Shown in pieces: positions 17,567-17,966 of a DNA stretch of 24,779 bases; positions within the stretch are counted from its first letter, which is position 1, and the number at the start of each line of letters is the position of its first letter. This DNA is from a virus. Location: the UHGV virus genome UHGV-0038615; one strand, written 5' to 3'. Position numbers and translations under genes: made by a program. The notes under the pieces were generated by a model. That model saw nothing but the letters and a program-made list of their open reading frames with translations. It was not told the origin of the DNA and searched no databases.

Positions 17567-17966
17567 TAACCGTTTGCTGCCGGTGGGCTCGTCGCCGCTT
17601 GAGGTGGCGGCGGCGCGCGCCTGCGCGGATATCGAAAATACCCCTGTCCCGCTGCGTCACCTCTGGAACCCTGACAACTGCCCCGCAAATCTGCTGCCGT
17701 GGCTGGCCTGGGCGTTTTCGGTTGATCGCTGGGATGAGAGCTGGCCGGAAGAAACCAAACGCGAGGTTATCCGCAGCGCGTGGTTTATCCATGCGCATAA
17801 AGGGACGATAGGCGCGGTGCGTCGTGTGGTCGAGCCGCTCGGGTACCTATCTGGCGAACCTGTCGGACTCGGTCAACAGCTAAGGAGCTCTGAGCATGGC
17901 GTTACCCCGCAAACTGAAATACCTGAATATGTTCAACGATGGCCTCAGCTATATGGGCGTTGTTGA
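17559..17966 (+). pseudogene. I: Tail protein I (P2 gpI-like), N-terminal ~95 codons only, fused out of context to sequence just upstream of FII
   Basis: First ~95 residues match P2 I from memory (LLP.GSSPLEVAAA.AC..IE.TPV..R.LWNPD.CPANLLPWLAWAFSVDRWDE.WPE.TKR.VIR...FIH.HKGTIGA.RRVVEPLGY), then similarity is lost; the ORF runs into the FII start. Confidence 0.6.

Follow-up and report, generated by a model that had tools for sequence, protein, structure and literature searches.

A recent 3,810-bp deletion fuses the baseplate gene I with the end of the sheath gene FI in a P2-like prophage of Escherichia coli

Why does the baseplate gene I of a P2-like phage break off after about 95 codons, 50 nt ahead of an intact tail tube gene? 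The question is raised by the virus genome UHGV-0038615, a stretch of 24,779 nucleotides that was analysed over its full length and is referred to below as the window, and whose open reading frame and Pfam layout passes directly from I to FII, with H, G and FI absent in between. A first-pass annotation, made from the sequence alone, had read this place as a deletion junction, and the comparison with a near-identical intact parent now anchors that reading. In all likelihood the locus marks where an integrated P2-like (Peduoviridae) prophage of E. coli recently lost 3,810 bp in a spontaneous deletion, an instance of ordinary prophage decay. The junction, called junction 2 because a second one lies further upstream, and the genes on both sides of it are the following.

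17559..17966, plus strand: I', truncated baseplate gene (Pfam Tail_P2_I positions 1-91 of 139; tblastn and translation)
17844..17845, no strand: deletion junction 2, a TA dinucleotide present on both parental sides and found unchanged in the contigs L007 and L014
17845..17883, plus strand: FI remnant, the end of the sheath gene, made of its last 12 codons (TYLANLSDSVNS) and TAA (tblastn to FI residues 386-397, 100% identity; translation)
17882..17887, plus strand: AAGGAG, ribosome-binding site of FII, read from the sequence and the same as in the parent
17896..18414, plus strand: FII, tail tube gene, intact (Pfam Phage_tube positions 1-165 of 165)

The parent is the prophage of E. coli WP2-S18-ESBL-07 (NZ_AP021944.1 1807265-1839793, L005), with which the whole window aligns in three collinear blocks.

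Block 1: window 1-11667, L005 3211-14877, 99.957% identity
Block 2: window 11657-17845, L005 18914-25101, 99.984% identity
Block 3: window 17844-24779, L005 28910-35845, 99.957% identity

An alignment to an intact P2-like genome had been proposed as the way to check the break, and this one, made with megablast, leaves exactly 3,810 bp of the parent missing at junction 2. Against phage records, the similarity of gene I ends at window 17848-17851 and the match to Enterobacter phage ENT4 restarts about 4.56 kb further along that genome. The comparison with ENT4 and pro147 had placed the break at 17844-17848 with an apparent overlap of 5 bp, which the true parent narrowed to 2 bp.

Read base by base, junction 2 fuses codon 96 of gene I with the final 12 codons of FI. 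The left parental side reads ...GAGCCGCTCGGGTA up to the break and TCTGATTAAC beyond it, the right parental side ...GCATCACCGA before the break and TACCTATCTGGCGAAC after it, and the window ...GAGCCGCTCGGGTACCTATCTGGCGAAC across it. The TA at 17844-17845 is the sole sequence common to both sides, without inserted bases, so that the microhomology amounts to 2 bp, or to four matches out of five if TAYCT is allowed. The product of I' matches parental gpI through residue 97 (...EPLGYL) and continues with 38 out-of-frame codons to a TGA at 17964-17966. It thus consists of 95 gpI residues, Y96 at the junction, a chance-matching L97 and 38 unrelated residues, Y96-L97 being retained since TAC CTA in the window and TAT CTG in the parent both code, by coincidence, for Y-L. 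The I' product is most likely non-functional. On the other side, the FI remnant, the AAGGAG and the FII ATG at 17896 are all unchanged compared to the parent, and the profile of FII is matched from end to end, as expected from the earlier description of an AAGGAG ribosome-binding site ahead of an intact tail tube gene. I' overlaps the start of FII by 71 nt, and ribosomes translating I' would run over this start.

Two observations had been named as arguments against a deletion, namely sheath or fibre genes elsewhere in the element and gpI homologues that naturally end at this length. A tblastn search of the window with parental H, G and FI retrieved nothing beyond the 12-codon FI remnant, and the parental gpI allele, identical over residues 1-97, is 176 aa long, so the reading of I' as a naturally short gpI was dropped. 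According to the parent annotation, the deletion took I codons 97-176, H (561 aa, with tail-fibre domains), G (a 192-aa fibre assembly protein), a 135-bp G-FI spacer and FI codons 1-385. The claim that tail fibre genes, G/FI locus and sheath gene are missing is thereby borne out by the alignment, with the reservation that the last 12 codons of FI remain. The lost spacer carried a strong intrinsic terminator (GGCGGGCAGTTGCCCGCC followed by TTTTCCTTTC, L005 27631-27648), which in the parent ends the V operon after G with 7 G-C pairs and a T-run. It also carried TGTGTCAGACCTTAGCCA, a pF-like site at L005 27666 aligning with the annotated pF activator site of P2.

Junction 2 is not the only lesion of the element. 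Junction 1 and the terminase remnant next to it are located as follows.

11658..11659, no strand: deletion junction 1, with 4,047 bp missing compared to L005
10369..11658, minus strand: P', remnant of the large terminase gene, residues 161-589 (alignment to L005; Pfam Terminase_6N and Terminase_6C)

This deletion took P codons 1-160, the divergent pP/pO region (L005 15349-15514), O, N, M, L and X codons 1-18. Its exact microhomology is about 2 bp (AT) with imperfect similarity around it. The lysis genes downstream of junction 1 are left without their late promoter.

Both junctions have the make-up of microhomology-type deletions, AT (2 bp) at junction 1 and TA at junction 2, with no IS, recombinase site, long repeat or insert. 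For random breakpoints, microhomology of at least 2 bp at both junctions has a probability of about 0.02, which gives mild support for a specific mechanism. Because the ends share only 2 exact bp and the parental sequences abut without any IS element or recombinase site, illegitimate recombination is most likely, and the two deletions would stem from RecA-independent events of this type.

The parent belongs to a group of intact P2-like prophages at cyaR/yegQ-yegR, which have in common with the window the integration site, the att core, the gene order and the cos-Q and ogr-att cargo. Compared to them, the window lacks 3,810 bp (the 3' part of I, H, G, the terminator, pF and FI) and 4,047 bp (the 5' part of P, pP/pO, O, N, M, L and the 5' part of X), and it has two private substitutions. 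With the two clean deletions set aside, the retained sequence is 99.96-100% identical to the intact prophages of sequenced E. coli isolates. When the V-to-I' block was used as a query, five genomes were found at 100% identity, three of which also show 100% on the FII side. Further intact prophages were found in GPEC1222, QA-1986 83 and SFE8, and those of six loci (L010-L013, L015 and L016) match the window at 99.9-100% identity to the left and right of each junction. The two sides of junction 2 occur at 100% identity in complete E. coli genomes and are never adjacent in them; among 5,426 such genomes, not one is matched by 80% or more of window 17560-18200. The absence of the junction from this collection indicates that it is lineage-private and recent.

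The differences from the parent point in the same direction. Only seven substitutions separate it from the window, besides the two deletions and a T insertion at 14835 that is common to other intact prophages. Those at 3099-3100, 11271, 18221 and 21868 change coding sequences (DUF5405 P46L, P H290N, FII G109D and D T9A, respectively) and all four coding differences are nonsynonymous. P H290N and FII G109D, both nonsynonymous, were found only together with the deletions, and the two genes that host them, P and FII, would have been made useless by these deletions. Near-identity to intact prophages combined with only two private substitutions implies that the deletions are very recent and arose in a sub-lineage of a widespread and otherwise intact prophage.

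The deleted form was seen only in ENA metagenome assemblies, and a first alternative is therefore that the junction was created by a metagenomic mis-join or collapse, the real prophage of the sample being intact. Such an origin is very unlikely. It would agree with the absence of the junction from all isolate genomes searched, to which exact-pattern scans add its absence from the GTDB species representative genomes and from the JGI metagenomes. It would also agree with an exact look-up of the 135-aa I' product that returned no record, a false negative explained by the absence of a gene call for this ORF. Junction-bearing contigs were instead recovered through a look-up of the FII G109D variant and of the 239-aa allele of a cargo gene described below, the exact FII variant being on record only from ENA, in six contigs. 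The longest of these six measures 24,779 bp, the length of the window, which is itself an ENA metagenome contig. One of the contigs recovered, L007 (ERZ27287548, k141_97122), shares 12,708 bp with the window at 100% identity, junction 2 among them, and extends for another 67 bp into the chromosomal sequence that also flanks the parent. Another, L014 (ERZ28614948, scaffold_6482, sample SAMEA4969188), is 100% identical over 13,469 bp including both junctions. The junction sequence being fully identical in these two additional contigs, whose different naming styles point to different assemblers, it is very probably not an assembly artefact. De Bruijn and overlap assemblers moreover need shared k-mers of tens of bases to make such a join, whereas the two sides share only 2 bp, and the SNPs private to the lineage are found together with the deletions. 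The window, L007 and L014 may derive from one sample or from related ones, in which case this reproducibility could be technical rather than biological.

The element that carries the two deletions is a complete P2-like prophage integrated at cyaR/yegQ-yegR of E. coli, 24,673 bp long compared to 32,529 bp in the parent. Its Pfam domains follow the P2 order, its DNA is collinear with ENT4, pro147 and E. coli prophages, and the genes missing from the P2-like synteny are accounted for by the two deletions. Integrase, att repeats (55-76 and 24706-24727), cos site (6503-6521) and Ogr activator are all present, int and ogr being assigned from the annotation of the identical parent. Chromosomal integration is visible from the flanks of the window, which include cyaR, and from the extension of L007 into the parental flank.

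55..76, plus strand: attL core AAAAAATAAGCCCGTGTAAGGG, left end of the prophage, a 22-bp exact direct repeat with 24706-24727; the pair also flanks the intact parent
6503..6521, plus strand: cos site GGCGAGGCGGGGTAAGCAT, retained, with 2 mismatches to the 19-nt cohesive end of P2 (0.01 chance matches expected)
23088..23309, plus strand: ogr, late-gene activator, retained (parent annotation; Pfam Ogr_Delta on the identical gene of L007)
24706..24727, plus strand: attR core, direct repeat, overlapping the 3' end of the cyaR sRNA gene
24709-24779, minus strand: cyaR sRNA (Rfam CyaR_RyeE, 80 bits)

The att core supplies the terminator end of cyaR (RyeE), into whose 3' end the prophage is inserted. 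Another direct repeat, the 17-bp TATCGATGTGGTCAATG, is found at 6-22 and 24641-24657. The left copy lies in the chromosomal flank, 33 nt beyond the attL core, and the right copy within the prophage, 49 nt short of the attR core. One copy of the repeat exists in K-12, near the left edge of the PR-X remnant, and it may be left over from an earlier integration or reflect an extended att homology.

Three cargo loci are present in the window. The first, at the cos-portal position that corresponds to the P2 old/tin hotspot (6521-9264), is intact in the defective element and contains two genes. One encodes a 542-aa AAA_15/AAA_21/DUF3696 ATPase with NsnB (5e-55), PDC-M55A and AriA as best PADLOC matches, and the other a protein of 370 aa with no Pfam domain and a weak PDC-M55B match; together they are a candidate anti-phage system. 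The second cargo gene, between S and V (14246-15232), is split by the extra T in a T-run at 14835 and encodes 239 aa here; in WP2-S18-ESBL-07 its product has 328 aa and no Pfam or PADLOC match. As the 239-aa allele is also present in many isolates with fully intact prophages (those of the six loci listed above), the frameshift is older than the deletions and does not stem from faulty sequencing. Between ogr and attR (23616-24467), the window encodes a trypsin-like peptidase whose C-terminal part has a SEC-C motif, with PADLOC matches to the protease part of RT-Protease_XI and to PDC-M35A. ENT4 does not have it at this position, so it probably represents a third cargo locus. In WCHEC005784, an IS150 lies directly upstream of the gene.

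The effect of the deletions on late transcription depends on which promoters remain in front of the following genes.

15596..15623, plus strand: pV late-promoter activator region (positional homology to the annotated site of P2; GTTGT at 15598)
15664..16305, plus strand: V, baseplate spike (Pfam Phage_base_V and Phage_spike; start from the parent annotation, ORF from 15562)
16302..16652, plus strand: W, gp25-like baseplate wedge protein (Pfam GPW_gp25)
16658..17566, plus strand: J, baseplate protein (Pfam Baseplate_J)
18469..18938, plus strand: E and E', tail assembly chaperone genes (Pfam Phage_TAC_7; GpE family ORF in the parent; slippery TTTTTTG at 18756)
18928..21369, plus strand: T, tape measure protein (Pfam PhageMin_Tail)
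21383..21847, plus strand: U, tail protein (Pfam Phage_P2_GpU)
21844..23007, plus strand: D, baseplate hub / late control D protein (Pfam Phage_GPD)

The first-pass annotation had proposed that the FI promoter was removed and that V-W-J-I'-FII-E-T-U-D may now form one operon driven by a single remaining late promoter, a TGT-N12-ACA at 15563-15580. The first point holds, the pF-like site of the parent being inside the deleted span. On the second, pP/pO and pF are indeed physically gone and the pV region is kept, while the site itself has become doubtful. In the P2 record, 10239-10266 is given as the pV activator site and the first base of the V coding sequence as the transcription start of the V operon. 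The P2 site begins with a GTTGT that is invariant in six aligned late-promoter regions, namely pV, pF and pO in both P2 and this phage. The distance from this motif up to the V ATG is 67 nt in P2 and 66 nt in the window (15598 compared to 15664), which designates about 15596-15623 as the homologue of P2 pV. Exact TGT-N12-ACA was rejected as a promoter marker, since it was found six times in the window for 4.8 occurrences expected by chance and since the three annotated P2 sites, pV, pF and pO, do not fit it. The perfect match at 15563-15580 lies upstream of about 15596, where the homology with ENT4 and WCHEC005784 begins, and this position in non-shared sequence, together with the chance frequency of the motif, makes it doubtful as pV. 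It belongs to the cargo-specific sequence, 17 nt ahead of the conserved pV region, and a second perfect match occurs at 17861-17878, inside the FI remnant and 18 nt before the FII ATG. Both candidate pV sites are retained, so the functional point made earlier stands.

From V to 18133, the plus strand showed no site resembling a terminator or a promoter. FII-E-T-U-D would now be without a promoter of its own and without an upstream terminator, and if transcribed at all it would be through read-through from the Ogr-dependent pV, as one V-W-J-I'-FII-E-T-U-D unit. Such a fusion of the V and F operons is a plausible and reasonable inference from the arrangement of the sites. Further downstream, a terminator-like match in E (18735-18763; the E ORF alone spans 18469-18783) corresponds to a hairpin with the TTTTTTG at 18756, at the position of the annotated E/E' -1 frameshift site of P2, and it is probably a frameshift signal rather than a terminator. 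The deletion had also been credited with the loss of a second classical P2 cargo hotspot at the Z/fun position; the locus is indeed gone, with the qualification that the parental G-FI spacer of 135 bp held a terminator and pF and no cargo gene.

The combined losses bear on particle formation. From the genes removed at junction 2 and the genetics of P2, no contractile tail and no host adsorption would be possible, and the independent 4,047-bp deletion, by removing the capsid module and pP/pO, would leave no heads either. FI, H, G, N, O, M and L are structural or essential in the P2 record, and the element is predicted to produce no infectious particles; the two deletions together would have turned it into a grounded, defective element. 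Morphogenesis genes are missing relative to L005 at an identity of at least 99.96%, with parental sequences abutting at the junctions, as in a defective prophage.

Alternatively, the 24.7-kb derivative could be a functional remodelling, adapted, helper-dependent or domesticated, with a V-to-D fusion operon under selection; it might be, for instance, a mini-P2 with a cos site that a co-resident intact P2-like phage mobilises, or a platform maintained because of its defence cargo. The element does keep attL, attR, int, cox, A, B, cos, ogr and all three cargo loci, as such a reading would have it. An identity of at least 99.96% to intact phages however leaves essentially no time for adaptation, and the deletions left half-genes (P', X', I' and the FI remnant) instead of clean modules. 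A frameshift disrupts one cargo gene, both private substitutions change an amino acid as relaxed selection would predict, and the element was seen in very few samples, all of which makes remodelling highly improbable. We give still less credence to its most specific form, in which the doubly deleted element is a helper-dependent mini-P2 that relies on an intact P2-like phage, co-resident or superinfecting, for its excision, replication and packaging. If this were true, the element would spread its defence cargo as an emerging satellite of phage origin, with V to D forming one operon under pV.

A chimeric origin, in which the X-to-I' block (11657-17848) would have come from another P2-like phage through two illegitimate joins instead of two deletions, could draw on the WCHEC005784 prophage, whose identity to the window is 99.85% outside 11657-17848 and 91.5-93.6% inside, switching exactly at both junctions, yet WP2-S18-ESBL-07, GPEC1222 and Logan and NCBI contigs carry a single intact prophage 99.9-100% identical to all three blocks, so the switch reflects the mosaicism of WCHEC005784 and this origin is rejected with near certainty. 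In that mosaic prophage (L004, NZ_CP028578.2, 9717-16195 against window 11657-17848), a DUF262 and HEPN cargo is found between S and V.

The preferred reading, two recent deletions in an integrated prophage, can be set against known P2-like elements. The late-gene order V-W-J-I-H-G / FI-FII-E-T-U-D-ogr, the set of four late promoters with their Ogr activator sites and the terminator after G are common to the lineage and to P2 (NC_001895), the type member of Peduovirus; the cos site differs by 2 of 19 nt. The DNA identity with P2 is only about 70-75%, judged from pro147, a close P2 relative. In P2, Z/fun occupies the G-FI interval and orf30 the S-V interval, whereas the ancestral G-FI spacer was geneless here and the whole region is now deleted. 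Deletion-degraded P2-like prophages are already well known, and PR-X of E. coli K-12 (ogrK and the yegZ pseudogene by cyaR) is one of them at the same locus, where it keeps the ogr end and the att core. PR-X is an end-stage remnant of 629 bp, in contrast to the 24.7-kb early-stage defective prophage described here, which has two lesions only. The concept of cargo hotspots in P2-like phages (PMC9122126) and defective P2-like elements with conserved defence cargo (PMC13586616) have both been described. As in the latter elements, a P2-derived genome has lost mobility or morphogenesis functions here while its cos-proximal cargo (the AAA_15/DUF3696 ATPase and its partner gene) is intact; unlike in them, one of three cargo genes is frameshifted. 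Two other classes were considered and rejected. An R-type tailocin does not fit a sheath reduced to 12 codons and the absence of fibre and fibre-assembly genes. A P4-like satellite does not fit a P2 genome minus two blocks that still encodes portal, baseplate, tube and tape-measure proteins, and no P4-type gene was found in the parent annotation.

No new system or mechanism is revealed by this locus. For annotation purposes, the I' ORF and the FI remnant are best labelled as pseudogene fragments and the element as a defective prophage. Its interest lies in providing a clean and datable example of the grounding of a P2-like prophage, in which two microhomology deletions in an otherwise 99.96%-identical genome took away three of the four late promoters together with the capsid, fibre and sheath genes, while integration, replication, cos and cargo were kept.
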